Below, one piece after another: positions 47,619 to 63,340 of a stretch of DNA of 64,000 bases. The number at the start of each line of letters is the position of its first letter. The first letter of the stretch is position 1. Source of the stretch: an uncultured Arcobacteraceae bacterium (lineage in GTDB: Bacteria > Campylobacterota > Campylobacteria > Campylobacterales > Arcobacteraceae); contig CAXHZO010000010.1 of NCBI GenBank assembly GCA_964022095.1, forward strand, positions 1 through 64,000, written 5' to 3'. The position numbers were made by a program, and so were the translations under genes. Under the pieces are notes generated by a model, which ran no database searches, was not told the DNA's origin, and worked only from the letters and a program-made list of their open reading frames with translations.

Positions 47619-47717
47619 GGGAGATATGTGTACCTGGTGGGCACCACAGGCTTCAACCCTGATTGAGAGAATATGTGTATATTCTCTGGGAGGTTCGATT
47701 CCTTCATCTTCTCGCCA
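47619..47717 (+). tRNA. selC: tRNA-Sec(TCA)
   Basis: CAGG-CTTCAAC-CCTG anticodon arm, TGGT D-loop, 9-bp variable stem, GGAGG-TTCGATT-CCTTC T arm, GCCA end; divergent from selA. Confidence 0.95.
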
Positions 47718-48038: not shown

Positions 48039-49157
48039 TTGGCAAGACATACAACTAAATATGCAGGAATACTTTATAGAGATTCTATGACAAATGAGAA
48101 GCCTGATAAAACGTATTATATCAGATATAAAGATGAAAACAAAAGAACTAAAGAATTAAAAATAGGTAAATATTCAGAAGGAATAAGAGAAAACTATTGT
48201 AATCAAAAAAGAAATGAAATCATCACAAAAATAAGACTAGGAGAAGAACCTCCAGCTGCAGCAAAAAATAAAAGAACAAAGAAAATATTATTAGATGATA
48301 TAAAAGAAATCTATTTTGAAACAAGAAGAGATGGAAGAAGTAAACAAAGCGATTTAGCTTCATATAATAAACACTTACATCCTTTTTTCAAGAATCTTAA
48401 TTTGGAGTTAGTTTCAAAAGAAGATATAAGAAAACTACAAAAGACTTTAAAAGAGAAAAAGAACCCATTAGGAAAGGATTTATCTACAAAAACCATTCAT
48501 AATATACTAACAATTTTAAAATCTATTACAAGCTTTGCAATAAAAGAAGAACTGTTAAAAAATGATTATAAAAAACATATTGAAATGGATACAGTTAGAA
48601 ATCAAAGAGATCGATATTTAACAATAGAAGAAATCAATATTCTATATGAGTATATAAAAGACGATCTTAGGCTTTACCTATTTTCTAAAATTGGATTAAC
48701 AACGGGGGCAAGACTTGCCTCAATTATCCATCTTTCAAAAAAAGACATTGACTTTAGTAATCAACTTATTACCATTTGTGATTTTAAAAAAGATCAAGAT
48801 GGGAAAATCACATATAAAAGTTTTTTAACGGATGAACTAGCTCAATTACTTAAAAATCATACACAAGAATTAAAACCAAATGATAAAATATTTCATAAGA
48901 ACCCATCTACAATACAAAAGAATTTACAAAAAATACTGAATGAACTATTTAACCAGGGAATTGACCCTAATGATAGAAAGAATAAAGCAGTAGTGCATAC
49001 ACTAAGACACACCTTTGCTTCTCATTTAGCTATAAATGGTACACCTATCTTTACTATTCAAAAGTTAATGAACCATAAAACTATAGACATGACTTTAAGA
49101 TATGCAAAATTAGCTCCAGAAAGTGGGAGAAATTCGATCTGTAGACTGTACAATTAA
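48039..49157 (+). CDS. Tyrosine recombinase / integrase
   Basis: TGAR, HTLRHTFASHL, LMNH...MTLRY motifs; N-terminal arm-binding region. Confidence 0.95.
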   Translation: MARHTTKYAGILYRDSMTNEKPDKTYYIRYKDENKRTKELKIGKYSEGIRENYCNQKRNEIITKIRLGEEPPAAAKNKRTKKILLDDIKEIYFETRRDGRSKQSDLASYNKHLHPFFKNLNLELVSKEDIRKLQKTLKEKKNPLGKDLSTKTIHNILTILKSITSFAIKEELLKNDYKKHIEMDTVRNQRDRYLTIEEINILYEYIKDDLRLYLFSKIGLTTGARLASIIHLSKKDIDFSNQLITICDFKKDQDGKITYKSFLTDELAQLLKNHTQELKPNDKIFHKNPSTIQKNLQKILNELFNQGIDPNDRKNKAVVHTLRHTFASHLAINGTPIFTIQKLMNHKTIDMTLRYAKLAPESGRNSICRLYN

Positions 49158-49244
49158 TATATTCAATTATTATATTTATTTGGAATTTTAAGTTTACTTT
49201 AAATATAATTCACTCACTTAAAGTTGATAAAAGGTATCATAAGA

Positions 49245-50516
49245 ATGACATATTTTAGTAAATTACAAAACAATATTAATAATTGTAAACTAAAATATAT
49301 TGATCTATTTTCAGGTGCAGGAGGTTTATCTGAAGGTTTTTTAACTGAAGGTTATAATCCCATAGTACATGTAGAGATTGATGAACATGCTTGCAAAACT
49401 CTTGAGACAAGACTTATTTACCATAAGCTAAAAAAACAAAATAATCTTAAAGCGTATGATGACTATCTATTGGGGAAGATTAAAAGAGAAGATTTTTTAG
49501 ATAAATATAGTGATTCAAATATAAAAGAATCTATTATTAACAAACCTATTGGTGAAGAGAACCCTTTTATTTTTAGTAAAATTGATAATCTGATAGATGG
49601 TACTAATGTCGACTTAATTATTGGTGGACCACCATGTCAAGCTTATTCATTGGTAGGACGAGCTAGAGATAAGAATGGGATGAAAAATGACCCAAGAAAT
49701 TACTTATATAAAGAATATGCTAAGTTTCTAAAAAAATATAACCCTAAAGTTTTTGTATTTGAAAATGTTATGGGATTAATTACAGCAGAAGAAGGTAAAT
49801 ATTTTAAAAATATGAAAGCCTACTTCAAAAGAGTTGGATATAATTTAGATTATACTATTCAAAATTCTGTAGATTTTGGTGTATTACAAAGTAGAAAAAG
49901 AATTATATTAATTGGTTGGCAGAAAGGATTAGATTTTCAGTATCCTGAGTTTAACCAGAAAAAACAAGATTTTACAATAAAAGATATATTATCAGATTTA
50001 AAAAAAATTAAACCTGGAAATAAAATACATACATCGAAATATACTTCAGAACCCAATGAATATTTGAAATATTCAGGAATTAGAGATAATGAAAGTTTTG
50101 TAACTCAGCATATTGCTAGACCACATAATGATAGAGATCTTTCAATTTATAAAATAGCAATAAATAAATGGCTAAAGAATAAAGAAAGACTAAAATATCC
50201 AGATTTACCAGAGAAACTTAAAACACATAAAAATCAAAAATCCTTTGCAGATAGATATAAAGTAGTTGACCCACTTGGAGTTTCTCACACAATGGTTGCA
50301 CATATTTCAAAAGATGGACATCATTATATTTACCCAGATACAAAACAAATTAGATCTCTATCAGTTAGAGAAGCGGCAAGAATCCAATCTTTTCCTGACA
50401 GTTATTTTTTTGAAGGTGGTAGAACTTCTGCATTTAGACAAATTGGAAATGCTGTTCCACCTCTTATGTCAAAAGAAATTGCATCAAAAATAAAAAGGCA
50501 GCTAAAAAATGCATAA
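49245..50516 (+). CDS. DNA (cytosine-5)-methyltransferase
   Basis: DLFSGAGG (I), GGPPCQ (IV), FENV (VI), QSRKR (VIII), REAARIQSFP (IX), QIGNAVPP (X); ATG at 49245, alternative TTG at 49224. Confidence 0.96.
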   Translation: MTYFSKLQNNINNCKLKYIDLFSGAGGLSEGFLTEGYNPIVHVEIDEHACKTLETRLIYHKLKKQNNLKAYDDYLLGKIKREDFLDKYSDSNIKESIINKPIGEENPFIFSKIDNLIDGTNVDLIIGGPPCQAYSLVGRARDKNGMKNDPRNYLYKEYAKFLKKYNPKVFVFENVMGLITAEEGKYFKNMKAYFKRVGYNLDYTIQNSVDFGVLQSRKRIILIGWQKGLDFQYPEFNQKKQDFTIKDILSDLKKIKPGNKIHTSKYTSEPNEYLKYSGIRDNESFVTQHIARPHNDRDLSIYKIAINKWLKNKERLKYPDLPEKLKTHKNQKSFADRYKVVDPLGVSHTMVAHISKDGHHYIYPDTKQIRSLSVREAARIQSFPDSYFFEGGRTSAFRQIGNAVPPLMSKEIASKIKRQLKNA

Positions 50517-52701
50517 TAAATCATTTAAACCAAAAGCTCACATCTTAAGACTATTAGGAAATGAGCTTATTAAAAATCCAACAATGGCAATTTATGAACT
50601 AATTAAAAACAGTTATGATGCTGACTCAACATATGTTAATGTAACTTTTGAATCAATAGATGATATTTCACAGGCACTAATTAGTGTAGAAGATAATGGA
50701 ACAGGATTAACAACAGAAATTATAGAAACAATTTGGCTTGAACCAGGAACAGACCATAGAAAACCAATTGATAAAAATGGAAATAGAATTATCAAGAGAA
50801 GTCCTATATTTAGAAGGGTTCCTATGGGAGAAAAAGGAGTTGGTAGATTTGCTGTTCATAAGTTAGGTGATAATATTGAATTAATTACTCGACCAAAGAA
50901 TGTGATACTTGATAAAAATCACAAAGTAATTAAAGAAGAACTTCTTGATTATGAAATAACATTAAAGATTGACTGGAATATATTTTCACAAAAACAATAT
51001 TTAGACGATATTCTTATTAGTTGGAATGAAGAGAAAGATCCATCAAAGTTTTATTTTAAAAATTCTTCTGGAACTAAAATTAAAATTACAGGACTCAAAG
51101 AACCATGGTCAAAAAGAATGGCTAAAGACTTAAAAAGAAATACTCTTGCAATGCTATCTCCAAAAAATAATCCAGATACTTTTAAAATAAATCTAGATTT
51201 TAAAAATAACTGGCTGGAAAACTTTAAAGATGTAAATGAAATATTAGAAATTGCTCCTTATAAATTTAATGCTTTATTGGATGAAAACTATAATCTTACA
51301 GTTAATTATGAATTTAACTTAGCCCTAGAAAATGAATTTGGGAAAAGAGAAATCCAAGAAGACACCTATAATATTCAAGGACTTCTACTTCCTGAAATAA
51401 GAGCAGAACTAAAAGATGAAGATTTTACAGAAGAGGAAATTGAAAAGAAGATGGAACAATTTCTGACTACTAAAAATCCATTTGGTAGTTTGTTCTTAGA
51501 AATTTACTCTTATGACTTAGATTCTGATACTTTAAAAAAATATACAGAGGAAGCGCAAACCTTAAAAGCTATACTTAAAAATCATTCTGGAATAAAAGTT
51601 TTTAAAAATGAAATGAGGGTTTATGATTATGGTGAGCCAGGAAATGATTGGCTAAAACTTGATATAAGAAGAATTCAAAATAAAGATTGGTTTTCAAATA
51701 ATCAAAATATTGGATATATTCATCTTGATGCCGAACAATCTACATCACTTATTGAAAAAACAAGTAGAGAAGGATTTATTGATAATAATGATTTTAAAAT
51801 ATTTTATAAGTGTGTAATTCAAATTTTAACTGACTTTAAAGCGGAAAGATTAAAAGACAGAAATAAATGGTTAACATACCTTAAAAGTGATTCCAATCCA
51901 AGTCCTGTAGATAATCAATACAATTTATTTACTAGTTTGATTGATAATACAGATTTCTCAGAAGAAGAACAAAAAAAGAAGTTAAAAAAAGAAGCAGAAA
52001 AACTACAGCAAGACTATGAAGAGAAAAAAGAAACAATGTTAATTCCTGCAGGAGTGGGAATGACAGCTTCAGTTGCACTACATGAAATTGAGAAAGTTGT
52101 TCCTCAAATGGAAAAAGTTGTTCAAGACGAACCTTTTAAAAAAGATTTAGCCATAGAAAAAGTTGAGGAATTGAAAGACTATTTAGAAGGTATTTTATCT
52201 GTTTTAAGAAAAGGTGGGAATAAACCTATAAAAGTAAAAGAGGTACTTGAAAAAGCCATATCTAATTATAAATTCAAACTAAGTAATCGTAAAATCATTA
52301 TTGAATCAATTTATGATAATAATATTGAGACAATAAAATGTGATAAAAGATATTTTATCACAATGATAATGAATATGATTGATAATAGTATATATTGGCT
52401 TGATACAACATATAATAATGAAAAATATATTTTGATAAAAACGATAAAAGAAGAAGATAATACGGTTTCTATTATTATTGCAGATAATGGTCCTGGTTTC
52501 AAAGATGAAATTAAAGATATAGTAAGACCTTTCTTTTCTAGGAAAGAAGATGGTATAGGAATTGGCTTATATTTAGTGGACACAATAATGATGAAATATG
52601 GGAAACTTGAAATTATAAATATAAAAGAAAATAATAAATATAGTATATCTAGTAAATATACAGGGGCAGTATTAAAACTTTCATTTAAAAGGAATCAATA
52701 A
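50509..52701 (+). CDS. MORC-like GHKL ATPase fused to a histidine kinase module
   Basis: N-terminal ELIKNSYDA, DNGTG, GEKGVGRFA, GTKIKI and S5-like EKTSREG; C-terminal H-box VALHEIEK, NMIDNS, DNGPG, PFFSRK, GIGIGL. Confidence 0.88.
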   Translation: MHNKSFKPKAHILRLLGNELIKNPTMAIYELIKNSYDADSTYVNVTFESIDDISQALISVEDNGTGLTTEIIETIWLEPGTDHRKPIDKNGNRIIKRSPIFRRVPMGEKGVGRFAVHKLGDNIELITRPKNVILDKNHKVIKEELLDYEITLKIDWNIFSQKQYLDDILISWNEEKDPSKFYFKNSSGTKIKITGLKEPWSKRMAKDLKRNTLAMLSPKNNPDTFKINLDFKNNWLENFKDVNEILEIAPYKFNALLDENYNLTVNYEFNLALENEFGKREIQEDTYNIQGLLLPEIRAELKDEDFTEEEIEKKMEQFLTTKNPFGSLFLEIYSYDLDSDTLKKYTEEAQTLKAILKNHSGIKVFKNEMRVYDYGEPGNDWLKLDIRRIQNKDWFSNNQNIGYIHLDAEQSTSLIEKTSREGFIDNNDFKIFYKCVIQILTDFKAERLKDRNKWLTYLKSDSNPSPVDNQYNLFTSLIDNTDFSEEEQKKKLKKEAEKLQQDYEEKKETMLIPAGVGMTASVALHEIEKVVPQMEKVVQDEPFKKDLAIEKVEELKDYLEGILSVLRKGGNKPIKVKEVLEKAISNYKFKLSNRKIIIESIYDNNIETIKCDKRYFITMIMNMIDNSIYWLDTTYNNEKYILIKTIKEEDNTVSIIIADNGPGFKDEIKDIVRPFFSRKEDGIGIGLYLVDTIMMKYGKLEIINIKENNKYSISSKYTGAVLKLSFKRNQ

Positions 52702-52702
52702 A

Positions 52703-53992
52703 ATGCTTACAGTTGAACCTAATATAATTATAGTTGATGATAAGTTTGATGAAATTAAAGGTATTCTTCAAGAATATCAAAATAGTGGTAGTGGTGTAAA
52801 GTATTATAATGCCCATTTGACAGATGGTGACTCTATTCCAGATAAATATTATTCTGATATAGTATTGATCTTTTTAGATGTACATTTTACTGAAAATACA
52901 GATGACTATGATCCTGAACTATGTAGCGGATGGATTCAGGGATTAATACCTGAAAATTCTTTTTATATACTAATTTTATGGTCAAAAGAAACAGATAAAG
53001 AAGAAGAGATATTAACTCAATTGAAAAATATTAATAGAACCCCTTTCATGTGTATTGCTGAACAAAAAACTAATTACATAACAGCAACGGGATATGATTT
53101 TACTAGGTTGTATAACGATGTTGAAAATAAACTAAATCAAAATAATGAACTAAAAGAACTTGCTATTTGGAAAAAAAGTATTAAAGAATCTTCTAATCAA
53201 ATCATTGGCCATTTATCTAAAGGGCTAGAAGAACCTAACCTATTAATAAAAAAACTTCAAAAAATTATTATTGCACATGGAGGGAAAGGATTTATTTCAG
53301 ATAATAAACATGAAGAAAAAAGAGAAATACTTTTTGAAGCCTTAGATAATATTCTTATTTCTAACTCCAAAGAATCTAGACCAAATATAGCAATATCTCA
53401 AAATAACAAAGACAATTTATATAAAATAGGAGAAAATATAACTGTTGATATAGATTCAAAATTAAATAGTTGGTTTCATTTTAAATTAGACAAAAATCTT
53501 CAAACCACTAAATTACAAATAGGACTAATTTCTATATTTAACAATGAATTTCTAAAAAACACCTATAGCTTAGTAGATGACCCTATTGCCAGTGATTATT
53601 TAAAACATCAAGTTTCAGCAGGTAAAGAGTTGATTGATATTGCCTTATTAATATCAAGACCTTGTGATATTGCACAAACAAAATATGGCAAAAATTTAAA
53701 ATTAATAAGTGGAGTTATAATTAAAAATCCAGTTAGAAAAGAAAATACAAAAAAAGAAATAAAAACTGGACAAAAAGTTGATTCAATAAAGTTGTATGAT
53801 CACTTATACTTTTCAGAAGAAGAGAAAGATATTTCTTTAATATTTGATTTTAGATATGTCTTCTCTATACCAGAAAAAATCTTTCAAGATAAATTTAAAG
53901 CAATAAAAGTATTTAATAAAGAATTACTTTCTGAAATGCAGGTTGAATATAGTGCATATTCAAGTAGATTAGGTATCACACAAGTTATATAA
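52703..53992 (+). CDS. Receiver-domain protein with uncharacterised C-terminal domain
   Basis: IIIVDD, IFLDV, ILWS receiver pattern; C-terminal SRPCDIAQ.K motif; starts 1 nt after the kinase stop. Confidence 0.75.
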   Translation: MLTVEPNIIIVDDKFDEIKGILQEYQNSGSGVKYYNAHLTDGDSIPDKYYSDIVLIFLDVHFTENTDDYDPELCSGWIQGLIPENSFYILILWSKETDKEEEILTQLKNINRTPFMCIAEQKTNYITATGYDFTRLYNDVENKLNQNNELKELAIWKKSIKESSNQIIGHLSKGLEEPNLLIKKLQKIIIAHGGKGFISDNKHEEKREILFEALDNILISNSKESRPNIAISQNNKDNLYKIGENITVDIDSKLNSWFHFKLDKNLQTTKLQIGLISIFNNEFLKNTYSLVDDPIASDYLKHQVSAGKELIDIALLISRPCDIAQTKYGKNLKLISGVIIKNPVRKENTKKEIKTGQKVDSIKLYDHLYFSEEEKDISLIFDFRYVFSIPEKIFQDKFKAIKVFNKELLSEMQVEYSAYSSRLGITQVI

Positions 53993-54004
53993 AAGTAGGA
54001 AGAA

Positions 54005-56023
54005 TTAGTCTTCCTCTTTATTAAGTAAATTCATTATTTTTTTTAACTTTTCATCATCTGCATAAAAATATTCCTCTAGAAGAGGTTTAAGTTTATAATT
54101 TCTAATAAATTCTAAATCAATGTCTTCTCCCATAAAATAACTATGACCTAATTTATAATCTTCCCCTATGTTATCTTCAATAAATTCATTTAGTTCTATC
54201 ATAAGTTCTCTAGCTTCATTATCTTCTACTAAACTATATTTGGGTTTCATTTTTATAAAAGTAAACCGTCTTCTTAAAGCTATATCTATTGTTGCAATTG
54301 ATTTATCTGTACTATTCATAGTTGATATAATATAAAGGTTTGATGGGATATAAAAGTCTTCTTTAGAATATGGCAGGGTTACACTGTACTTATCTCTTTT
54401 ATCTTCTTCAATAAGAGTAATAAGCTCACCAAAAACCTTAGATATATTTCCTCTATTTATTTCATCAATAACAATATAGTAGTTTTGTTTTTCACTTTTT
54501 TCAACTTTTATATTTTTATCATTTTTTTTCGATTTAAACTCTTTAAAAAGTTGATATAGCTTAAAATAATAGGTTGCATGTTGTTTAGATAAACTACTGA
54601 TTTTTTCTAAATGTTTAATTTGTTTTCTCTCTTGAATATCATTTTTGTAGAATTCAAAAATATCATTAAATTTCATTCTTAAGCCACGTTCATGTTCACT
54701 CCAATTATCACCTTTATATCTAAAGGCATCTTCTTCAATTTCATAAATATATACAGCATCCGTAAGTGTTAACTTTGAATCTTCTACTATTTTATTTGAT
54801 ACATATTCACAAAACTCTTCAAATATATTAATTGTCCTTTTTTCTTCTTGAATAACTAATTCATCTTTTAAGCTATTTTCTAAGTTAATTCTAGCTTTTT
54901 CAGCAATAATTTTAAAAATACCATCTTTTCTAACAATTCTATCTTCATCTTCACTTGGTCGGTACCCTTCTATAAAATCTTCATATGAATAACTTTGGTG
55001 GAAAGTTACAAACTCAATTCTATCTTCCTTTTTTATTTGATTAAAAAGATCATGATTAATTTCAATGTCATTTTCATCTTCTACTGCTTTTAAAATTTCT
55101 TTTATATTTTTATCACCACTTTCAATCATAGTGATAAGATTTTTATAGTTATATGTTTTACCTACACCCGGTGCGCCATAAAGCATCAGGTTTTTAATCT
55201 TTATTTCATGTGAGTTTGATGTGTTCTTTACTCTTGTTAGATCTAATGATTGAAGAAAGCTTATATATTTCTTTATTGCAGCACTTGGTGCTCTATTTTG
55301 CGTCTTCAAATTAAAGTCTTTTAAATCTCCATTGAAACATCTATCATAGAGATTGTTCAATTTTTCTATATTCTGTATTTTAAACACGGTATCAGGAAAT
55401 GTATTCTCTATACTCTCCATAGTTTCAGGGATATCTCTTTTTAGCATATTGGGATAAGTACTTAATGTTGCTTGACTATGACCCATTTTAACTAAGTATT
55501 CTCTAAATTTTGATTCTAATTCTTGATGATCCATTTCTTGAATTTCCTTTTTCTCTAATTTACTTGTATAGGTAGGCATAACCTTTAAAAAATCTATCAT
55601 AGTATCAATTTGCCAGTTTATATATTCATCCCATTTTGTTTCATCTTCTAAATCAACTTCTTTTTTAGCAAAGATTCTACAGACTGTCCCTTTTGCAGAC
55701 TCACCTTTTCCTTGCCAAACAATATTTTTTGTTGTTAATTCATTTTCTATTGATTCTTGATGTATTTTTAATTGATTAAAATAGCTTTCATAATAATTTT
55801 TTTCATTGATGTAAACTTCTACGATTAAACCATTAAAGTCATTTCCATAAGTAGTACTTCTATCACTTGAAATTACAAAGTTGTATCTTACTTGTTCATA
55901 TTGAAAAGATTGAGCGTGATATTTACCTTCTCTATATTCAAATTCCTTTTTTTTTGGGAAGTTACTTTTTTGCTTTTTTTGTTTTTCTAGTAGTTTTTTA
56001 AAATATTTACTATAGTCCATCAA
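54005..56023 (-). CDS. mcrB: McrB-like AAA+ GTPase with DUF4268-like N-terminal domain
   Basis: GAPGVGKT, TFHQSYSYEDFIEG, IDEINRGN, MNSTD, ALRRRF, LGHSYF. Confidence 0.9.
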   Translation of the reverse strand: MMDYSKYFKKLLEKQKKQKSNFPKKKEFEYREGKYHAQSFQYEQVRYNFVISSDRSTTYGNDFNGLIVEVYINEKNYYESYFNQLKIHQESIENELTTKNIVWQGKGESAKGTVCRIFAKKEVDLEDETKWDEYINWQIDTMIDFLKVMPTYTSKLEKKEIQEMDHQELESKFREYLVKMGHSQATLSTYPNMLKRDIPETMESIENTFPDTVFKIQNIEKLNNLYDRCFNGDLKDFNLKTQNRAPSAAIKKYISFLQSLDLTRVKNTSNSHEIKIKNLMLYGAPGVGKTYNYKNLITMIESGDKNIKEILKAVEDENDIEINHDLFNQIKKEDRIEFVTFHQSYSYEDFIEGYRPSEDEDRIVRKDGIFKIIAEKARINLENSLKDELVIQEEKRTINIFEEFCEYVSNKIVEDSKLTLTDAVYIYEIEEDAFRYKGDNWSEHERGLRMKFNDIFEFYKNDIQERKQIKHLEKISSLSKQHATYYFKLYQLFKEFKSKKNDKNIKVEKSEKQNYYIVIDEINRGNISKVFGELITLIEEDKRDKYSVTLPYSKEDFYIPSNLYIISTMNSTDKSIATIDIALRRRFTFIKMKPKYSLVEDNEARELMIELNEFIEDNIGEDYKLGHSYFMGEDIDLEFIRNYKLKPLLEEYFYADDEKLKKIMNLLNKEED

Positions 56024-57176
56024 CTATTTCCTTTACTTCATTGGTAATTTTTTTTATGTAATTAGAGTATGTATTTATTTCCATATTTAAGTCTATACTT
56101 CTAATTTCTAATTCAATTTTTCTCTCATTCCTACCTAATACAAAAGAATCTTTAATTTCATCATTGTGCATAGGATATAAAAGCATTGTTTTATCTATCT
56201 CTTTTGAATAATTATTTCCATAAACATACATTTGGTACTTATCATTTCTACTTATACCATCCTTATTGTTCATAATTTTATATTTACAATCTATAATTAA
56301 TCTCTGGTTCCTAAGAATAATGTCTGGCCTTAATGATAATATTCCAAAGTTTTCATTTTCTTTGGGAATACTTACGTTTTCATATGTGTTCTGCACAATT
56401 TTACCAATAAACTTTTCATATAATATATTCATGTCAAATAGAAATGCAAAAGACTTTTTGTCTTTTTGGAATAAAGGTATAAATTGATTTAACAATAAAA
56501 GTGCAAATTCAAAATGAGATTTGAATCTAATATTTAATCTATTGAAATTTATAGTTAAGTTTCTTATATCAAGATGATTATGTTCAACTTCATCAAAAAT
56601 TAATTCGCATTGCTTTAGTACCTTTTTATTCTTGACACCGATTATTAAAGATTTTATAGCAAATAAAAAGAATTGGTTTAATAAATTGTTCATACTAAAC
56701 TCATCATATTCACAATAAATTTTACTTCTTGTAAAGTTATACTTTAAATTTTCATTTATTAAATATTTTCCCTTTAAAGTATGAAGATTATCTTCTTCGA
56801 TTCTATACTCTTTGTAAGTACCTTTTTTTAATTCTTTTAAAAGATTTTTTGCAAATAACTGAATAAATACTTCTATTACATTATGCTTATGGTTTTTACA
56901 AGATGCAAGTTCTTCATTTTCTAACTTCATATCATATGTATAAATTAGCATATACATAAAAATATCTAAGTTTTCATCTTTATCTTTTGATATTTTGGGA
57001 AGGATAAAATAGTCTGTATTTTTAAAGTTAAGCATTCCACAATATTGCTTTGTTTTTAATATGCCCCATTCATATTTAAAGTATTTATGCAATATTTTAT
57101 TGTTAAGTATATGTTCTCCAAGTTCTTGTAGACAATCATTATTTAAATCTATTTTTTCATGTTCAGATAAATACAT
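56010..57176 (-). CDS. mcrC: McrC-like PD-(D/E)XK nuclease
   Basis: FLFDMN.LYE.F, LRPDI, IIDCKYK, D.YQMY.Y, LLYP; overlaps mcrB by 14 nt. Confidence 0.9.
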   Translation of the reverse strand: MYLSEHEKIDLNNDCLQELGEHILNNKILHKYFKYEWGILKTKQYCGMLNFKNTDYFILPKISKDKDENLDIFMYMLIYTYDMKLENEELASCKNHKHNVIEVFIQLFAKNLLKELKKGTYKEYRIEEDNLHTLKGKYLINENLKYNFTRSKIYCEYDEFSMNNLLNQFFLFAIKSLIIGVKNKKVLKQCELIFDEVEHNHLDIRNLTINFNRLNIRFKSHFEFALLLLNQFIPLFQKDKKSFAFLFDMNILYEKFIGKIVQNTYENVSIPKENENFGILSLRPDIILRNQRLIIDCKYKIMNNKDGISRNDKYQMYVYGNNYSKEIDKTMLLYPMHNDEIKDSFVLGRNERKIELEIRSIDLNMEINTYSNYIKKITNEVKEIVDGL

Positions 57177-57251
57177 ATTAAGATTATATCTTCTTATATC
57201 TTACTATCTAGAAAGTTGTTGAGCAATGTAGTTGCGAATAAATTCAAGATA

Positions 57252-57301
57252 GTAAAAACAGTCAATTAATTTATTAATGACAGTCTTTTACACATCTTGC
57301 C
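57252..57301 (+). other. MOBP-type origin of transfer; predicted nic between 57299 and 57300
   Basis: Imperfect 19-nt inverted repeat (57252-57270 / 57273-57291) followed by ACATCTTG^CC, the RP4/R64 oriT layout; upstream of a traK-like gene. Confidence 0.72.
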
Positions 57302-57467
57302 TTTTTCTCTTATTGTAATTTATTAGATTTTAATGCATTCTTCTCAAAAAAGTACTATTTAAGTTATATAAAAGCAAGTTGACATAAAATCTAACTAACT
57401 CTAATTAAATGATATATATTGTGATATAATTATTTTCTATATATAGAAAAATATTTAAGGCACTTTA

Positions 57468-57830
57468 ATGAATAAAATAAAAAGAGGGACTGGAAAAATT
57501 GAGTTTTTTACAAATCTTGATTATATAGAAAAGAAATATTATGCTGGATATGTAGTAGCAAAAGAACTTTATAATTTAACAAAAAAAGAAAAAAATATCA
57601 CTATGTCATATAAGCAATTTAGTATATATTTTAAAAAATATATCTTTAGTCAAGATAAAAGATTCACTAATTTAGAGCTTGAAAAAAATGAGCCTAATTT
57701 AACAAATAAGCTTGAAGAACAAAAAATAATAGATAAAACTCCAAAAATAAAAAAAATTATTGCTGGAGATAAAAAACACAAGCGTTACAATCCACATACT
57801 AGAGAAATTAATCCAGAAGACATTTTATAA
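57468..57830 (+). CDS. TraK-like oriT-binding protein
   Basis: EF....D.IE....AGY....LY.......I.MSY..F..YF pattern resembles IncP TraK; adjacent to oriT. Confidence 0.6.
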   Translation: MNKIKRGTGKIEFFTNLDYIEKKYYAGYVVAKELYNLTKKEKNITMSYKQFSIYFKKYIFSQDKRFTNLELEKNEPNLTNKLEEQKIIDKTPKIKKIIAGDKKHKRYNPHTREINPEDIL

Positions 57831-57834
57831 CTTA

Positions 57835-57977
57835 TATTTCACATATATGCTAAATATGATATATTTTTTTAAATATTCATAATAGAAATAACACTATTTA
57901 GTATATAAGCTAAAACTAAAGCAAATATTTATTTTAGAAGCTATATAATTGATCATATTTAACTTATATACTAAATA
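57835..57977. promoter_or_regulatory. Three 22-bp palindromic operators in front of the hipB-like gene
   Basis: Copies at 57835, 57895 and 57956 approximating TATTTAGCATATATGCTAAATA; TATAAT at 57944-57949. Confidence 0.72.
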
Positions 57978-58000
57978 AGAACATATATTAAGGTATTAAA

Positions 58001-58213
58001 ATGGCATCAACCTACTCTAAAATAGGAAAAATCATAAGAATAAGAAGAAAAGATTTAAATCTTGAACTAAAAGATTTACAAGATTATTCAGGTGTAAATT
58101 ATGTTTCAATTTCAGATATTGAAAATGGAAAAGCAAACCCTACAATTAAAACACTAGAAAAACTTTTAGATGTATTAGGAATGGAATTAGATATCAAAGT
58201 GAAAATTAAATAA
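58001..58213 (+). CDS. XRE HTH regulator (HipB-like)
   Basis: IR.RRK.L.L...DL...SGV....IS.IENGKANPTIKTL. Confidence 0.9.
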   Translation: MASTYSKIGKIIRIRRKDLNLELKDLQDYSGVNYVSISDIENGKANPTIKTLEKLLDVLGMELDIKVKIK

Positions 58214-58539
58214 TGCAAAGAGCAAAAGTTTTTAGAAACAGTATCTTTGCTGGGTTACTTACAAAATTTGATGAAAATAGTTATAGTTTTGTTTATGATA
58301 AAGAGTATTTAAATAAAGATATTGCGAAAGCTATTAGTCTAACATTCCCTTTACAAGAAGAAGAATTTACATCAAAAAGCTTATTTTCTTTTTTTTATAA
58401 TCTATTAGCAGAAGGAAAATTAAAAGATATACAATGTAAAGAGCTTAGAATTGATAAAAATGATGATTTTTCAAGGTTATTATTAACAACCAAAGAGAAC
58501 ACAATAGGTTCAATTACAATAGAAAAAGATGAGATATAA
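58213..58539 (+). CDS. HipA N-terminal domain protein (HipS-like antitoxin)
   Basis: AG.L...YSF.Y...ISLTFPL...FF.NLL.EG couple_hipA pattern; TAATG coupling. Confidence 0.88.
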   Translation: MQRAKVFRNSIFAGLLTKFDENSYSFVYDKEYLNKDIAKAISLTFPLQEEEFTSKSLFSFFYNLLAEGKLKDIQCKELRIDKNDDFSRLLLTTKENTIGSITIEKDEI

Positions 58540-58541
58540 AA

Positions 58542-59540
58542 ATGGAAGATAAGATATGTTTAGGCTGTTTAGCAGAAAATAAAAAACTAAGAAATAACTA
58601 TTGTTCAAAGTGTATTAAAGAACTATTTAATGGTAAGGTACCAAATCCTTTAAATTTTGATAGAGTTGAATTTACTAAAAAAAGAGCAGAATTATCACCT
58701 AGAATGTCAATCTCTGGAGTACAAGATAAAATCTCTTTAACTTTTGAAAAGAAAGATTTAATACCAACTGCAAGTAATGGAAAATATATATTAAAACCTA
58801 TTACAAATGGAGATGGGTATATTCAAAATGAAAAAGATATTGTGGCAAATGAACATTTATCAATGATTATCTCAAAGAATATATTTAAAATTCCTACAGC
58901 TTCGTGTGGTTTGATTATGTTTAGTGATGGAGAGTTAGCTTATATAACAAAGAGATTTGATTATGATGAAGAAACAAGCTTGAAACATGATCAAGAAGAT
59001 TTTGCTGGAATTATGGGAATAACACCAGTAACTCATGGAGAAAATTATAAATATGATGCTTGTAGTTATTTAGATTGTGCAAAGATGATAAAAAAGTATG
59101 TTGCATCAAGTGTAATATCACAAGAAGACTTTTTTAAAAGAATTATTCTAAATTATCTAATATGTAATGGTGATGCACATATTAAAAACTTTTCTTTGTA
59201 TAGTAAAGCAGATTCTAGAGAATACTTTTTAACACCAAGTTATGATTTATTAAACACAAGATTTCATATAAATGAAAAATATGGAGATATGGCTATAGAT
59301 TTATTAGATGATTATACATCTACTTATGAAGCTTATGGTTACTATACTTATGATGATTTTAAAACCTTTGCTAAGTATATAAATTTACCTGAAATAAGAT
59401 TTAATAAAATTATGAAATTTATTGAGGATTCATATCAAGAAGTAGAAGATTTGATTGAAAAATCTTTTTTAAGCTCTGAAGCAAAAGAGTTTTATAAAGA
59501 ATCTTATAAAGATAGAATGAAAAGATTGAGAGCTAGGTAG
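58542..59540 (+). CDS. HipA-family kinase toxin (HipT-like)
   Basis: MSISGVQDK, NEHL.M, RFD, QEDF, NGDAHIKNFS, LTPSYDL; N-terminal CxxC..CxxC. Confidence 0.92.
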   Translation: MEDKICLGCLAENKKLRNNYCSKCIKELFNGKVPNPLNFDRVEFTKKRAELSPRMSISGVQDKISLTFEKKDLIPTASNGKYILKPITNGDGYIQNEKDIVANEHLSMIISKNIFKIPTASCGLIMFSDGELAYITKRFDYDEETSLKHDQEDFAGIMGITPVTHGENYKYDACSYLDCAKMIKKYVASSVISQEDFFKRIILNYLICNGDAHIKNFSLYSKADSREYFLTPSYDLLNTRFHINEKYGDMAIDLLDDYTSTYEAYGYYTYDDFKTFAKYINLPEIRFNKIMKFIEDSYQEVEDLIEKSFLSSEAKEFYKESYKDRMKRLRAR

Positions 59541-59882
59541 TATATAAAGTTTATATATTTTCTAACTAAATTATTTGGCAAGAAGAGCTATCCCCTACCA
59601 AATTTAAAACTCTAGATAGAGACCTTTTTAAGATACTTTATACTTCTTTTTTATTGATATTTTTCCAGAAAAAGATATACTTTTTTCTGGAAAATATTTT
59701 TAATATTCTCATAGCTAGTAAAAATTCCTAAATATTTTCATTTATTTATACAAATTGTATAAACATTGTTTAATATCTACTTGTTTATTCACTTTCTTTG
59801 ATTAGAAATGTCTTTTTAAATACAAAATATGTCTTTACTAGGAACAGTACTAGCTATCATCTAGAGTTCCTATATATTCAAC

Positions 59883-61472
59883 TTAATAAGAATAACTATT
59901 CCCATCTTTTTTATTAGATATATTTTTAATAACTTGCATTTTTTGATCTTTAAATACTATATTTAGATTATGTTTCTGTACAGTTTTAATGGCTTCTCTT
60001 TTAAAGTCTTCTGTACCCGTGATATCTAATTCATTTCCATATTTAGCCATGGCCATTTTTAAAACAGTTAAGATTTCATTCGATTTATTATTGTTAATAT
60101 TTATTTTTAGATGATTACCTTTATCTAATACCTTACTTTCTTCATTAATCTTATAAGTTACCGTTCCATCTTTATTGACTATCTTATCTCCAAAAGAAAA
60201 AATTTGATTATTCTCTTTTTTTTCTGTAGCTGATAAAATATTTTCTCCAGGATTTATTGTTATCTTTGATTTTCGTAATGCCTCTAATGCTTCTTCATCT
60301 CCAGATAAAGATCTATTTATTAGATAATCTTTATAAGAAAGCTTTTTATATTTTGAATATATATCTAATCTTTGATCTTTAAATTTCATTTGAAAAGAAC
60401 TTAGCTCTTTTTTTCTAGATTCATTAATCATTTTATAAATCTTTTGTTTTTCTTGTCTAGAGATAGTTCTATCTTTCATAGTCTTTTCTCTGTATAGTTG
60501 CCACTTCTTTTTGACATTCAATTTATATAATTCTCTTTGTTCTTTTTCTTCTGCTAATAATATTTCTTTTCCCTGGAGTTTTAATTTTTCGAACTCTCTA
60601 TATTCATCCCAAAGATTTGATTTAAGATTAGTTTTTAGTTCAAACTTATGTATAGGTTCTATTTTGTCTATAATTGCTTTTAAAGCTTCTTTATCTTTTT
60701 CTCCATATCTTTTATCTAATTTAGATTTTGAAAGCTCTCTGCTTATATCTGATGCTTTTATGAATAGTTTTTGTGATCTACTTGATATTACATTTCCATT
60801 TCCTCGATCTCTTAGCTCTAGATCATATTTAGCCAAAGTTTTATATAGATCTTTCCAGGTACTCTTATCATCAGCTAAAACTTTTTTAATCTCAGCTGCA
60901 GCATTTTCTTTTACCCAATCTTTAAAATTAACTATTCCTGTATGAATAGTTTTATCATCCATATCATTCTTTTTTTCTTCAAGAGTTCTTCTAACATGAT
61001 TTGTGATTTTTAGATTATGTTTTATTTCTAACTCAGCAGCCTTTCTTTGTAGCGTTAACTTATCAAAAGATAGATTTTTAATCTTATGAGTTATTGGATC
61101 TATTAAGTTTACAGCAACATGAATGTGCTTGTTATTAGTGTTTGTATGAATAACACTTAACCTTTGACAATCTTCAAGCCCTAAAGATGATAATAATTCA
61201 TTCTCTATATCTTGAATTATCTCATCACTTGGATTCTCATCTTCTTGAAAAGAAACAATCAAATGATAAGTTTTATCTTGTTTTACTCTTTGATTCAAAG
61301 ATTGTGTATTTTCAATCTCTAGAATGTTGTGATCTATTTCCGTATAGCTACAATTTGAGAAGTAATAAGTTTCAACTTTTTCCATATTGTTTTTTAGATC
61401 TAATATATAATTTGCTAAAGCTTTATAACTCGATTTTGTAGCTTTTTTTGCAGCTACTTTTTTAACTATCAT
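59883..61472 (-). CDS. traI: MOBP relaxase (TraI/MobA) with LPD7-like C-terminus
   Basis: L.NYI motif I, YHLIVSF motif II, H.NT.N.HIH motif III; A.AKYG..L.ITG.E.FK tail. Confidence 0.92.
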   Translation of the reverse strand: MIVKKVAAKKATKSSYKALANYILDLKNNMEKVETYYFSNCSYTEIDHNILEIENTQSLNQRVKQDKTYHLIVSFQEDENPSDEIIQDIENELLSSLGLEDCQRLSVIHTNTNNKHIHVAVNLIDPITHKIKNLSFDKLTLQRKAAELEIKHNLKITNHVRRTLEEKKNDMDDKTIHTGIVNFKDWVKENAAAEIKKVLADDKSTWKDLYKTLAKYDLELRDRGNGNVISSRSQKLFIKASDISRELSKSKLDKRYGEKDKEALKAIIDKIEPIHKFELKTNLKSNLWDEYREFEKLKLQGKEILLAEEKEQRELYKLNVKKKWQLYREKTMKDRTISRQEKQKIYKMINESRKKELSSFQMKFKDQRLDIYSKYKKLSYKDYLINRSLSGDEEALEALRKSKITINPGENILSATEKKENNQIFSFGDKIVNKDGTVTYKINEESKVLDKGNHLKININNNKSNEILTVLKMAMAKYGNELDITGTEDFKREAIKTVQKHNLNIVFKDQKMQVIKNISNKKDGNSYSY

Positions 61473-61849
61473 GCTTGTTTCTGCATTATTTTTAATGCTT
61501 CATTTTTTAATATTAACTTTAGTCTTTCTATATCATTTACAAGATTGTCTATATCTTTGTAAGTTCTAGTATTACTAAAGTCATGTTTATCTGCTCTATT
61601 ATCCTCTAACCACATTTTAAAAAGACCTCCTAATCTTCCCATATCTGCATTTACTTTTAAAAGATTAGCAGCTGCTTTTTCATCAACTATAGATTTTATA
61701 GAATAATTAAGACCTAATGATCTTAAATATCCTGGGATTTTTAGTCCATATTTATTAGAGTTTGAAACTAAGTTTTCTTGTTCATTTTGATTAACTCTAA
61801 CCGTTATTTTTATATCTCTTCTTTTTTGTGGATCTATTGAAGTTCTCAT
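61469..61849 (-). CDS. traJ: TraJ/MobC-like RHH relaxosome protein
   Basis: I.VRV...E...GL....YLR..GL and L.KVNAD.GRLGGLFK.WL typical of IncP TraJ; ATGA overlap with traI. Confidence 0.85.
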   Translation of the reverse strand: MRTSIDPQKRRDIKITVRVNQNEQENLVSNSNKYGLKIPGYLRSLGLNYSIKSIVDEKAAANLLKVNADMGRLGGLFKMWLEDNRADKHDFSNTRTYKDIDNLVNDIERLKLILKNEALKIMQKQA

Positions 61850-61850
61850 A

Positions 61851-63083: not shown

Positions 63084-63084
63084 C

Positions 63085-63339: not shown

Positions 63340-63340
63340 T

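Follow-up and report, generated by a model that had tools for sequence, protein, structure and literature searches.

The locus examined here raises the question of why a DNA cytosine methylase should be encoded in tight succession with a histidine kinase and a receiver protein, and what such a three-gene cassette does for its host. The cassette occupies positions 49245-53992 of the window, by which we mean the whole 64,000-nucleotide stretch of Arcobacteraceae DNA that was analysed. Inspection of the junction letters confirmed that the methylase and kinase genes overlap by 8 nt and that a gap of 1 nt separates the kinase gene from the receiver gene (52703-53992). The parts are as follows.

49245..50516, + strand: C5 cytosine DNA methyltransferase, 423 aa from ATG 49245 (430 aa from TTG 49224); PF00145, E 3.7e-67; TIGR00675, 200 bits
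50509..52701, + strand: soluble double-GHKL histidine kinase, 730 aa; PF13589 and PF02518, NCBIfam histidine-kinase models, PDB matches
52703..53152, + strand: REC domain of the 429-aa receiver protein, phospho-acceptor Asp59 codon at 52877-52879; AlphaFold model compared with solved receivers
53153..53506, + strand: helical linker or middle region of the receiver protein, residues ~151-268; model secondary structure and conservation
53507..53992, + strand: output domain of the receiver protein with a predicted CcdB/MazF/Kid-like toxin fold, residues ~269-424; predicted structure comparison

Our analysis suggests that the cassette is probably an anti-phage module that resembles a restriction system but responds by signaling and not by cleavage. 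More specifically, we put at roughly 55% the probability that it is a self-contained, horizontally mobile restriction-modification (R-M)-like module in which methylation serves as the mark of self, unmethylated DNA is detected by the kinase, and a toxin-like effector is activated through phosphotransfer from His to Asp. In such a system, the C5-methyltransferase would methylate the host's own DNA, and the N-terminal MutL/MORC-type ATPase and middle region of the kinase would serve as a cytoplasmic sensor, activated by unmethylated target DNA from an incoming phage or plasmid, or from the chromosome after loss of the methylase. The kinase would then autophosphorylate on His525 and pass the phosphate to receiver Asp59, releasing or assembling the C-terminal CcdB/MazF-fold domain, which may act as an RNA-cleaving toxin (MazF/Kid/ToxN-like) or as a gyrase poison (CcdB-like) and stop the infected or cured cell. 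This reading builds on observed gene linkage, intact catalytic motifs, folds, domain fusions, and co-variation in relatives; from these we infer DNA sensing by the window kinase itself, the direction of the phosphorylation control, and the toxic activity of the output domain.

The initial annotation had already proposed a phosphorelay-controlled defense system of this kind. Its description of the locus was borne out: three coupled genes directly behind an integrase, a complete C5-methyltransferase, a soluble double-GHKL protein with an H-box histidine, and a receiver protein with an Asp-Asp pair, a phospho-acceptor Asp, an RPCDIAQ motif, and no helix-turn-helix (HTH), in an operon with no recognizable restriction endonuclease or Vsr. 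The proposed logic of methylation as a self mark, a MORC-type sensor, and His-to-Asp signaling is also the one best supported by the EcoRII-N/Dcm co-variation and the toxin-like fold described below. The novelty that it claimed for the system did not survive, as set out further on.

The methyltransferase appears complete by sequence, with motifs I, IV (PPCQ), VI (ENV), VIII, IX, and X all readable. PADLOC, one of the checks suggested in the initial annotation, was informative for this gene, which is matched by the DrmMII/MTase_II models, and returned no model match for the kinase or the receiver protein. Pfam, PADLOC, and NCBIfam revealed no nuclease family in the operon, and Pfam assigned no HTH family to any of the cassette proteins.

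The kinase starts with a MutL/MORC-type ATPase (residues ~12-230), which is followed by a middle region that is also conserved (~231-505), by the DHp helix, and by an ATP-binding domain (~570-730), with Pfam matches to HATPase_c_3 at residues 25-132 and to HATPase_c at residues 613-702. The H-box ALHEIEK contains His525 (codon 52081-52083), which is invariant in 21 kinase orthologues together with the N, G1, F, and G2 boxes. The N-terminal Bergerat motifs are likewise invariant (E30-N34-D37, DxGxG at 62-66, and GEKGVGRF at 107-114), and the PDB matches comprise both MutL N-termini and histidine kinases. Since the highest Kyte-Doolittle mean over 19 residues is only 1.21, the protein has no transmembrane segment. 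Atlas structural neighbors of residues 130-505 are other double-GHKL kinases; a HEF_HK-bearing cluster also appeared among the structure-search neighbors of the middle region, which we record as a lead only. A restriction enzyme hidden in the kinase was considered and rejected: the N-terminal ATPase matches the NCBIfam model of the BbrUII/HgiDII restriction enzyme N-terminus at 62 bits, but this match covers the GHKL part only (positions 9-199 of 659), and no nuclease domain was recognized in the protein. Neither EcoRII-N nor any other DNA-reading domain was identified in the window kinase; DNA sensing by this protein is carried over, by analogy, from the sister variants discussed below.

The receiver protein has no Pfam match. 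Residues 4-150 of its AlphaFold model nevertheless align with solved receiver domains at Z 9.7-8.3, matches also obtained with Foldseek, and the phosphorylation residues D12, D13, D59, S94, and K122 are present. Among 47 diverse receiver relatives (17-54% identity), D59, W93, and K122 never vary, and D12 and D13 hardly do. The linker that follows has its own conserved features, namely W156, HGG192-194, and an LNSWFHF motif. No HTH was found in the protein, either with Pfam or in the model.

As far as the moderate fold match allows, the tail of the receiver protein, for which the initial annotation had recommended a Foldseek search, shares the CcdB/MazF/Kid/ToxN fold (an SH3-like barrel plus a C-terminal helix), a resemblance newly recognized here. 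The model of the whole receiver protein matched MazF chains at Z 8.5 and 8.4. When the output domain was folded alone (pLDDT 82), each of the 12 chains that reached a Z of at least 5 was a MazF, CcdB, Kid, or CptN chain (Z 8.0-6.0), with alignments spanning 90-114 residues of each. ToxN and AbiQ came next at Z 4.9-4.6, after which the scores dropped to 3.6 or below, the range of unrelated chains; every match with Z of at least 4.6 is thus a solved toxin. MazF-type toxins accounted for 30 of the 31 Foldseek matches listed, with probabilities up to 0.99 and a best E of only 0.019 (none at or below 0.001). The agreement is moderate, the VIA Z of 8.0 being a level graded as possibly a common arrangement. 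At the sequence level, a comparison of residues 262-429 with Pfam at E ≤10 returned no PemK_toxin, CcdB, or ToxN, only a chance-level DUF5067, and the output domain had no sequence match in the PDB and none in NCBIfam. The predicted homodimer of the output domain scored 0.09, against a mark of 0.42, which speaks neither for nor against a dimer.

The conserved core of this domain comprises C321, D322, R384, and R422, with C321 invariant across the 47 relatives. The invariant Cys321-Asp322 pair is encoded at 53663-53668 and lies within the RPCDIAQ motif (residues 319-325), the R319 of which is not conserved across the superfamily. The catalytic residues of MazF are Arg and Thr, and to our knowledge a Cys-Asp pair has no known role in the CcdB/MazF fold.

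The three genes occur together far more consistently than chance would allow, in line with the co-occurrence that the initial annotation had proposed to survey. At E ≤0.001, the search with the receiver protein yielded 221 homologues, and 24 cassette loci were found among ~185,000 species genomes, a patchy and mobile distribution. An intact kinase gene lies beside the intact receiver gene in 21 of 21 genome loci (3 further loci are degraded or fragments), and a C5-methyltransferase is present in 20 of these 21, the remaining locus starting inside the kinase gene. A receiver-type open reading frame directly follows the kinase in 64 of the 65 metagenome loci that reach past the kinase (80 loci in total). 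The cassette or parts of it were also detected in 9 DNA runs from marine or seawater metagenomes; no RNA run holding it was listed, and a tblastn search of the plasmid collection with the receiver protein returned no match.

In the window, the cassette rides on an island whose content includes an integrase, tRNA-Sec, a relaxase, and HipA. The elements on its upstream side are the following.

47619..47713, + strand: tRNA-Sec (ARAGORN), probable integration site of the cassette-bearing island
48039..49157, + strand: tyrosine integrase (PF00589, E 1.1e-23), part of the island context and not of the cassette
49180..49209, + strand: promoter-like site ahead of the methylase gene, TTGGAA-18-TATAAT, 10/12 matches

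The integrase adjoins tRNA-Sec and lies directly upstream of the methylase gene. It is 85% identical to the integrase of one relative locus (L001), the layout of which is identical. A search of the window for a second att copy gave none. The promoter-like site is weak evidence, as the region is AT-rich and shows no excess of such sites (80 observed versus 69 ± 7 in shuffles). Across phyla, cassettes of ~50% identity occur in unrelated genomic contexts, often next to defense genes such as Shedu, GmrSD, a gene for a CAP12-type TIR protein, Z1/paraMORC, and DpnI. Because the flanking genes are otherwise unrelated and often belong to other defense systems, the cassette appears to stand alone.

This mobility opens the way for a different explanation, in which the cassette acts through postsegregational killing: loss of the island and its methylase would leave the chromosome unmethylated, the kinase would fire, and the toxin-like receiver would kill or arrest the cured cell, with phage defense secondary or absent. 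R-M systems do behave as addiction modules, and the island setting, the spread of ~50%-identical cassettes across unrelated contexts, as expected for a selfish mobile unit, and the toxin-like fold of the output all fit. However, the sensing logic would be the same as in the reading that we prefer, so that addiction and defense are compatible, and both the defense genes in the neighborhood and the phage-blocking activity described for the systems Ambrosia and Detocs, introduced below, argue for an immune role. We regard addiction as the primary function as unlikely; even if it were the only one, it would still explain the cassette's ride on mobile islands.

Support for unmethylated DNA as the trigger comes from sister cassettes. 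In two loci (L003 and L020), the orthologous kinases, 53-60% identical to the window kinase throughout the core, have EcoRII-N fused at the N-terminus (E 9e-17 and 3e-20). A protein search with the EcoRII-N kinase region showed that fusions of EcoRII-N to a GHKL kinase account for 55 of 61 matches. Binding of EcoRII-N to CCWGG is abolished by C5 methylation on either strand, according to PMC2770665. Against the Dcm model NF007772, the methylases that accompany EcoRII-N kinases reach 327-367 bits, versus 58 bits for the window methylase. In a survey of 104 loci, the 23 kinases with EcoRII-N were accompanied by a Dcm-like methylase in 19 cases and by none found in 4, and never by a window-like one. 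The 34 kinases lacking EcoRII-N were instead accompanied by a window-like methylase in 30 cases (orthologues of 50-86% identity), by another or partial one in 3, and by none in 1. A Dcm-type enzyme thus occurs in 19 of the 19 EcoRII-N-positive loci with a methylase found versus 0 of the 34 EcoRII-N-negative loci. Several of the metagenome loci in this count are near-copies of one element; the kinase tree requires at least 5 changes of EcoRII-N state, and 5 of 5 independent pairs point in the same direction (sign test, p = 0.0625).

The fusions were drawn from the cassette relative loci and from the protein search. A scan of 401 Bacteroidota genomes with PF09217 matched 5, in EcoRII-like ~400-aa frames or short ~145-aa frames with no kinase fusion. 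In seven EcoRII-N-positive loci, a genuine EcoRII-C restriction gene is present as well (3 by Pfam, L048, L051, and L054, and 4 by tblastn); there the kinase could serve the EcoRII-C enzyme and not act alone. The output varies as well. In one clade of 13 loci, a short receiver of 237-265 aa, the tail of which has no Pfam family, and a separate gene for a metallo-beta-lactamase (MBL)-fold protein replace the toxin-like tail. Such effector modularity is typical of defense systems. The EcoRII-N/Dcm co-variation and the MBL-fold effector swap are new results of this analysis.

Taken one step further, these data lead us to suggest, tentatively, that the whole family could be described as a signal-transducing restriction-modification system, in which a reading of unmethylated DNA would be converted through His-to-Asp transfer into the action of a toxin with the CcdB/MazF fold or, in the short-receiver clade, of an MBL-fold hydrolase. 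The reader would be EcoRII-N in the sister cassettes and a MutL/MORC-like module, possibly with the coupled methylase, in the window type, and the receiver tail would represent a new class of response-regulator output with a Cys-Asp active center of a kind not known from this fold.

Downstream of the cassette, a second set of elements bears on another explanation.

53997..54015, no strand assigned: bidirectional terminator-like hairpin, located between the convergent receiver and McrB genes (sequence scan)
54005..57176, - strand: McrBC-type restriction pair, McrB (DUF4268 N-terminus plus AAA_5) and McrC (Pfam, NCBIfam)

Terminator-like sites are more frequent here than in shuffles (8 observed versus 2.5 ± 1.7). 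The McrBC pair is convergent with the cassette and lies 12 nt downstream of it. We considered it as a fourth cassette component and rejected this, as McrBC lies beside the cassette only in the window and in L001, that is, in 1 of 24 relative genome loci, and is absent from the other 23.

The pair matters because of Ambrosia (AbrR-AbrA-AbrB-AbrC-AbrD), a system of P. aeruginosa that blocks phages (van den Berg et al. 2025, bioRxiv 10.1101/2025.09.30.679545). As described in that preprint, its methylase, GHKL kinase, receiver, and type IV-like HNH nuclease are all required, mutation of the receiver Asp abolishes anti-phage defense, expression rises on infection, methylation by its methyltransferase gives phages no protection, and the authors favor transcriptional control. 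This family may therefore not obey a plain logic of unmethylated DNA as foreign. By extension, an infection-triggered relay in the window could control the methylase, transcriptionally or otherwise, so that its mark, here not a mark of self, is attacked by a modification-dependent nuclease, possibly the adjacent McrBC, the position of which recurs in L001. Yet the window receiver has no HTH and ends in a toxin-like barrel, McrBC accompanies so few of the relatives, and the sister-kinase EcoRII-N, which binds only unmethylated sites as far as the published data go, fits sensing of unmethylated DNA. Furthermore, many cassettes have Vsr as a neighbor (5 of 18 by Pfam and more by tblastn), an enzyme that serves repair where a Dcm-type methylase is constitutively active. 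We consider an Ambrosia-type logic slightly more doubtful than addiction.

The Vsr neighbors could be taken in yet another direction. MutL stimulates Vsr in E. coli, and the N-terminal ATPase of the kinase resembles MutL, so a MutL-like ATPase-kinase and its receiver might tune very-short-patch repair or the methylase, for example by reporting 5mC deamination, with no immune or toxin role. We find such a housekeeping function highly improbable: Vsr is missing from the window cassette itself, the cassettes show a patchy and mobile distribution, and the toxin-like fold, the MBL-fold effector swap, and the EcoRII-N fusion all point to a conflict system.

If our preferred reading of methylation-guided signaling is correct, the self/non-self logic of R-M systems would here be wired to an abortive, signal-amplifying response and not to DNA cleavage, two-component signaling would gain a new output domain, and the EcoRII-N variants would offer a trigger of defined sequence (CCWGG, either methylated to 5mC or not) with which to ask how infection is sensed by Ambrosia-like systems. 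Cassettes that link a methylase to a kinase and a receiver are widespread, and among the relatives Ambrosia blocks phages. The branch described here adds two handles, a toxin-fold effector fused to the receiver and a sister-kinase DNA reader of measured specificity and methylation sensitivity.

With respect to known systems, the window cassette combines features that are otherwise found apart. By sequence, it resembles classical two-component pairs in having the H-box His, the N/G1/F/G2 boxes, and the receiver Asp-Asp, Asp, Ser/Thr, and Lys, and it differs from type II R-M systems in that no cognate restriction endonuclease lies beside the methylase. GHKL ATPases of the prokaryotic MORC/paraMORC type have been described as traveling with cytosine methylases (Iyer, Abhiman & Aravind 2008, PMC2292703). 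The window kinase shares their N-terminal Bergerat motifs and has the MutL and BbrUII-type matches, and its sisters borrow the effector-DNA reader of EcoRII. In contrast to EcoRII and paraMORC R-M systems, however, its C-terminal half is a histidine kinase, with output through a separate receiver protein. The output domain resembles the CcdB/MazF/Kid/ToxN superfamily in its predicted fold (residues ~269-424) and differs from these toxins in being ~50 residues larger, in its helical inserts, in its fusion to a receiver, and in having neither an antitoxin gene nor a sequence-family match; its conserved Cys-Asp and two Arg do not appear to correspond to the residues known for MazF catalysis.

The architecture of methylase, double-GHKL kinase, and receiver was described in silico in 2021 by Bellieny-Rabelo, Pretorius & Moleleki (PMC8011034), which removes the novelty claimed in the initial annotation, as does the phage validation reported for Ambrosia and Detocs. 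In the text searched, that paper gives the receiver tail no fold or role and does not mention EcoRII-N fusions. The HEF_HK (PF19191)/Response_reg_2 (PF19192) pairs, as described there, have an upstream C5-methyltransferase, a soluble kinase with HATPase_c_3, a His-Glu DHp, and HATPase_c, and an adjacent receiver with a long tail. The window has each of these: HATPase_c_3, His-Glu DHp, and HATPase_c with no transmembrane segment, next to a receiver and downstream of a C5-methyltransferase. The kinase ATP domains are 34% identical over 82 residues (E 2e-8), and "CD" and "SR[LV]G" motifs are collinear in the receiver tails of the two groups. PF19191 did not match the window kinase (P0002), for which only PF13589, PF02518, and a weak DnaJ-X were returned, and PF19192 matched neither the window receiver (P0003), even at E ≤10, nor its own whole genome, 5 other cassette genomes, or 33 receiver relatives. 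As a positive control, proteins of L025-L027 matched PF19192 at 93-107 bits, and control kinases matched PF19191 at 65-105 bits. Profile-profile comparison with the PF19192 family gave only weak similarity, at E 0.013 when the receiver was used and 0.076 when its tail was used, pairwise receiver comparison was not significant, and PF19192 proteins are ~530-550 aa long versus 429 aa for the window receiver. An Atlas feature search also returned a PF19192-bearing cluster (score 0.78), a lead only. The window proteins fall outside the published Pfam models and therefore form a divergent branch. The general type of the cassette is already published; the window branch and its likely mechanism are not.

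Detocs (DtcA/DtcB/DtcC) showed earlier that a two-component relay can be an immune system, anti-phage defense being abolished by mutation of the receiver Asp (Rousset et al., bioRxiv 10.1101/2023.01.24.525353). The window shares with it the principle of a receiver-fused effector; in Detocs, phosphotransfer directly activates a toxic enzyme domain, and the effector is swappable. The components described for Detocs are a kinase with a TPR sensor, the buffer receiver DtcB, and an effector that is mostly a PNP ATP-nucleosidase; a methylase is not among them. The window cassette instead has a MutL/MORC-type sensor, a CcdB/MazF-fold output, and a coupled methylase, with no buffer receiver; neither a TPR or PNP family nor a second receiver gene was found in it (ORF list, Pfam). 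What it has in common with Ambrosia, as reported, is the clustering of a DNA methylase gene with genes for a histidine kinase/HSP90-like ATPase and a receiver. Only Ambrosia has, by its description, the XRE (HipB-like) AbrR, the N6-adenine methylase AbrA, the winged-helix receiver AbrC, and the type IV-like HNH protein AbrD. A search on the cassette strand from the integrase to McrB for an XRE-type gene or any further open reading frame of at least 60 aa returned only one, nested within the methylase gene, and no HNH family was found among 13 proteins scanned around the cassette. With a C5-methyltransferase, a receiver fused to a toxin-like barrel, and none of AbrR, AbrA, the winged helix, or AbrD, the window cassette is set apart by description from Ambrosia.

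The initial annotation had described three tightly coupled genes behind an integrase, the first encoding a complete C5-methyltransferase (MTase) and the second a soluble 730-aa protein with two GHKL domains, an H-box histidine and no transmembrane segment, and these points were borne out by our analysis. The three ORFs lie on one strand, and the region around them is arranged as follows:

47619-47713, tRNA-Sec gene, adjoined by a tyrosine integrase gene, with the cassette downstream of the integrase
49224/49245-50516, C5-MTase gene, same strand as the kinase and receiver genes (ORF call)
50509-52701, kinase gene, overlapping the MTase gene by 8 nt (ORF call)
52703-53992, receiver gene, after a 1-nt gap behind the kinase gene (ORF call)
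53997-54015, terminator-like hairpin at the end of the operon
54005-56023, minus strand, gene for a McrB-like protein with a DUF4268 N-terminus (residues 6-152)
57468-57830, island gene for a 120-aa orphan protein
58001-58213, island gene, probable HipB
58213-58539 and 58542-59540, split island gene for HipA (N-domain and kinase domain, respectively)
59883-61472, island gene for a MobA/VirD2 relaxase

The MTase matches PF00145 (E 3.7e-67) and TIGR00675 (200 bits), with DrmMII and MTase_II as its top PADLOC models, and the motifs FxGxG, PPCQ, ENV, QxRxR, RExxRxQxFPD and GN are readable in its sequence. The kinase carries HATPase_c_3 at residues 25-132 and HATPase_c at residues 613-702. Toward the N-terminus it is similar to MutL and to the ATPase portion of BbrUII/HgiDII restriction enzymes, and over its last third to many sensor kinases. 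The H-box ALHEIEK (containing His525) does not vary among 21 orthologues, nor do the N, G1, F and G2 boxes; no hydrophobic stretch in the protein comes near a membrane helix.

The tRNA-Sec gene is directly preceded by selA and selB and followed by an island (48039-64000, extending beyond the window end) with the gene order integrase, cassette, convergent McrBC pair, 120-aa orphan, probable HipB, split HipA and relaxase. With an integrase at tRNA-Sec, and with McrBC, split HipA and a relaxase around it, the cassette is cargo of an integrative, mobilizable island, for which no second att copy was found within the window. In the McrB-like protein, which weakly matches the PADLOC candidate PDC-S11, DUF4268 replaces the usual 5mC-reading domain at the N-terminus. 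With its gene only 12 nt away from the operon of a C5-MTase, one may ask which modification this McrB targets.

The 429-aa receiver protein has no sequence match in Pfam, NCBIfam, PADLOC or the PDB, and its nature emerged from structure prediction. In an AlphaFold model built with 24 homologues as input (pLDDT 81.7), residues 4-150 match dozens of solved receiver domains (Z 9.7-8.3, with Foldseek giving the same result), and the five signature positions D12, D13, D59, S94 and K122 are in place, which upholds the earlier reading of a receiver with an intact DD pair and phospho-acceptor Asp. The same whole-protein search aligned two MazF toxins with residues 269-424 (Z 8.5 and 8.4), and we therefore folded residues 250-429 alone (pLDDT 82.2) and searched this tail with VIA-align (48,161 chains) and Foldseek. 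In VIA-align, all 12 chains at Z >= 5 were MazF, CcdB, Kid or CptN (Z 8.0-6.0), aligned over 90 to 114 residues, the greater part of each toxin; next came ToxN and AbiQ (Z 4.9-4.6), and the first unrelated chain followed at Z 3.6. The Foldseek comparison, which had been proposed for this C-terminus at the outset, gave MazF-type toxins in 30 of 31 rows among the matches listed, with probabilities up to 0.99 and a best E value of only 0.019. The tail is thus predicted to adopt a CcdB/MazF-type fold, a firm assignment for so small a domain, although fold by itself does not make activity certain.

Across 47 aligned relatives of the receiver protein (17 to 54% identity), D59, W93, K122, G274, C321, G337 and G424 are invariant and D12, D13, D322, R384 and R422 nearly so. 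In this alignment, the RPCDIAQ motif highlighted in the initial annotation shrinks to a core of Cys321-Asp322, and Arg319 is not conserved. MazF has a catalytic residue pair.

A search with the receiver protein returned 221 homologues in a collection of 5.8 billion proteins, about 50% identical over the full length and originating from Flavobacteriia, Bacteroides, Photobacterium, Lentisphaera and a Halarcobacter MAG; a profile search returned 764 clusters among 1.84 billion representatives (both at E <= 0.001). A neighborhood survey for co-occurrence of the three genes covered 24 genome loci, from contigs with one genome per species, and found the kinase and receiver genes intact and adjacent in 21, frameshifted in 2 and as a fragment only in 1. 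Directly upstream of the pair, 17 of these loci have an orthologous MTase (>= 50% identity); in 1 it lies downstream, three have another C5-MTase, and one locus begins within the kinase gene. In metagenomes, the kinase profile yielded 80 loci, and a receiver-type ORF (59 recognized by motif pattern, 5 by eye) directly follows the kinase in 64 of the 65 that extend beyond it; the exception, L089, has a truncated kinase of the EcoRII-N type described below and then a small HTH-like ORF. Degraded copies occur in L022, L024, L023 (a lone C-terminal receiver fragment) and L089, and the frameshifts that split kinase, receiver and MTase in two long-read MAG contigs are possibly assembly errors.

The flanks vary between loci and often contain defense genes (Shedu, GmrSD, a CAP12-type TIR protein, DpnI, paraMORC with Z1). 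Varying flanks around a retained trio indicate that the three genes move as a unit. Such mobility would also suit a cassette that serves addiction only, a reading that, set beside the defense genes in the flanks, we regard as possible but unlikely. Vsr flanks the cassette in 5 of 18 loci, and a repair or housekeeping role together with Vsr seems very improbable to us. The nearest relative locus, in the Halarcobacter MAG (L001), has an integrase-cassette-McrBC layout identical to that of the window, with a Shedu (SduA_C) gene upstream of its integrase (L001:1980-3152). In four loci, a second methylase-linked module directly follows the cassette, namely a HATPase_c_3 protein of about 490 aa with a Z1-domain protein of about 900 aa (L004:11150-15393, L015:9281-13469, L017:9254-13519) or a NOV_C protein with a HATPase_c_3 protein (L060:9884-12188); one MTase may be shared by several restriction-like modules. 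A remoter clade of double-GHKL kinases (39 loci, L082-L120; 29 to 39% identical to the window kinase) is likewise followed by receiver-type ORFs of 420 to 529 aa, shorter where the gene is cut off, with a window-like MTase in some loci and Vsr in many; no Pfam model covers the specific regions of either partner.

An indication of what the kinase senses came from relatives with an additional domain. Structural neighbors of the kinase middle region in the Atlas include a cluster with EcoRII-N, the effector-DNA reader of EcoRII, whose binding to CCWGG is lost once the inner cytosine of either strand is C5-methylated (Golovenko et al. 2009, PMC2770665). In L003 (Kordia) and L020 (Bacteroides), kinases that share 60% and 53% identity, respectively, with the window kinase over residues 4-730 carry this domain as an N-terminal extension within the called ORFs (E 9e-17 and 3e-20, above the Pfam cut-off), and 55 of 61 proteins found with the EcoRII-N region are EcoRII-N plus GHKL fusions of 772 to 957 aa. 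The proteins that join EcoRII-N to the double-GHKL core are:

L003:5325-7997, kinase gene
L020:5232-7985, kinase gene
P0272-P0327, 55 protein clusters

NCBI names such kinases 'EcoRII N-terminal effector-binding domain-containing protein', and any MTase found beside them was of the Dcm type; Vsr is a frequent companion and an EcoRII-C gene an occasional one.

The MTases differ accordingly: those of L003 and L020 score 327 and 367 bits over the length of NF007772, the model for the Dcm type of E. coli, and that of the window scores 58 bits. We compared MTase type with kinase N-terminus over 104 loci, of which 7 close-family loci lacked the upstream sequence for judging the EcoRII-N state.

MTase type by kinase N-terminus
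EcoRII-N present, 23 loci: Dcm-like 19, window-like 0, other or partial 0, none found 4
EcoRII-N absent (close family), 34 loci: Dcm-like 0, window-like 30, other or partial 3, none found 1

MTase type goes with the kinase N-terminus across loci. Among the metagenome loci, some represent the same gut element in several copies (the compared parts of L069-L071 match L020 at 100% identity). We built a tree from the kinase cores of 51 close-family members and 5 outgroups, leaving out incomplete or broken kinases, L045 (whose kinase is truncated by the contig start) and two near-copies, L071 and L073. It implies at least five gains or losses of EcoRII-N even when only well-supported branches are counted, and in all 5 phylogenetically independent pairs the MTase type switches with EcoRII-N (sign test, p 0.0625, the best possible with five pairs). 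This is strong circumstantial evidence that the kinase input is DNA at the sites of its partner MTase, in the unmethylated state. An Ambrosia-style logic, by which the mark itself would be the target, possibly via the McrBC adjacent to the window cassette, seems unlikely to us. The window kinase has no EcoRII-N; there, DNA could be read either by the middle region, which is conserved, or by the coupled MTase in the role of a specificity subunit.

The output of the cassette family is modular. A single change in the kinase tree sets off a clade of 14 rows in which a short receiver of 237 to 265 aa, in whose tail no family was found, precedes a tightly coupled gene for 318 to 345 aa; all 9 of these genes tested show weak metallo-beta-lactamase (MBL)-fold matches (E 6.5e-6 to 1.8e-3; only 2 above the Pfam cut-off). 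By tblastn this layout occurs in 13 loci, with either sensor type:

L048:8199-9910, four-gene MBL variant
L055:8172-9891, four-gene MBL variant
L060:8216-9936, four-gene MBL variant
10 further loci, four-gene MBL variant

A true EcoRII-C restriction gene lies beside the cassette in 7 loci with EcoRII-N kinases (3 by Pfam, L048, L051 and L054; 4 by tblastn), so the relay can be an add-on to a complete restriction-modification system, a caveat for reading the cassette as an autonomous module.

Considering these data, we propose a model to which, as a whole chain, we assign a probability of roughly 0.55. The methylase would label self DNA, the kinase would detect unmethylated DNA and pass phosphate from His525 to Asp59, and the CcdB/MazF-fold domain would be switched on as a toxin, with abortive defense as the outcome; the same chain would also addict the host to the island. 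Within this chain, we infer the direction of phospho-control, the toxin target and DNA sensing by the window kinase.

The defense interpretation of the initial annotation is broadly supported, but the class it describes is not new. A comparative genomic study described a C5-MTase, a HATPase_c_3, HEF_HK and HATPase_c kinase, and a Response_reg_2 protein, and proposed a cytoplasmic two-component-like system linked to restriction-modification and paraMORCs (Bellieny-Rabelo et al. 2021, PMC8011034; paraMORCs, Iyer et al. 2008, PMC2292703); the architecture is exactly that of the window cassette. The models for this family, PF19191 and PF19192, match its true members and give no match in the window proteins, pairwise similarity is confined to the kinase ATP domain, and profile comparisons are weak but collinear, which together mark the window cassette as a divergent sister branch. 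Ambrosia combines a GHKL kinase and a winged-helix receiver with an N6-adenine MTase, an HNH nuclease and an XRE regulator, and its phage defense is reported to need all components, including receiver Asp60 (bioRxiv 10.1101/2025.09.30.679545). Detocs had earlier been shown to be an immune system that signals from a kinase to a receiver-fused effector (bioRxiv 10.1101/2023.01.24.525353), so the idea of a two-component circuit recruited to immunity is not new. A full-text literature search, beyond which supplements or other papers could hold an example, found neither a receiver fused to a MazF/CcdB-type domain nor EcoRII-N fused to a kinase. In conclusion, the window cassette belongs to a published kind and represents a divergent branch that is invisible to Pfam; to this we add the fold of the output domain, the co-variation of EcoRII-N with Dcm-like MTases and the effector swap, all unpublished as far as our searches reach, and these make the mechanism directly testable.
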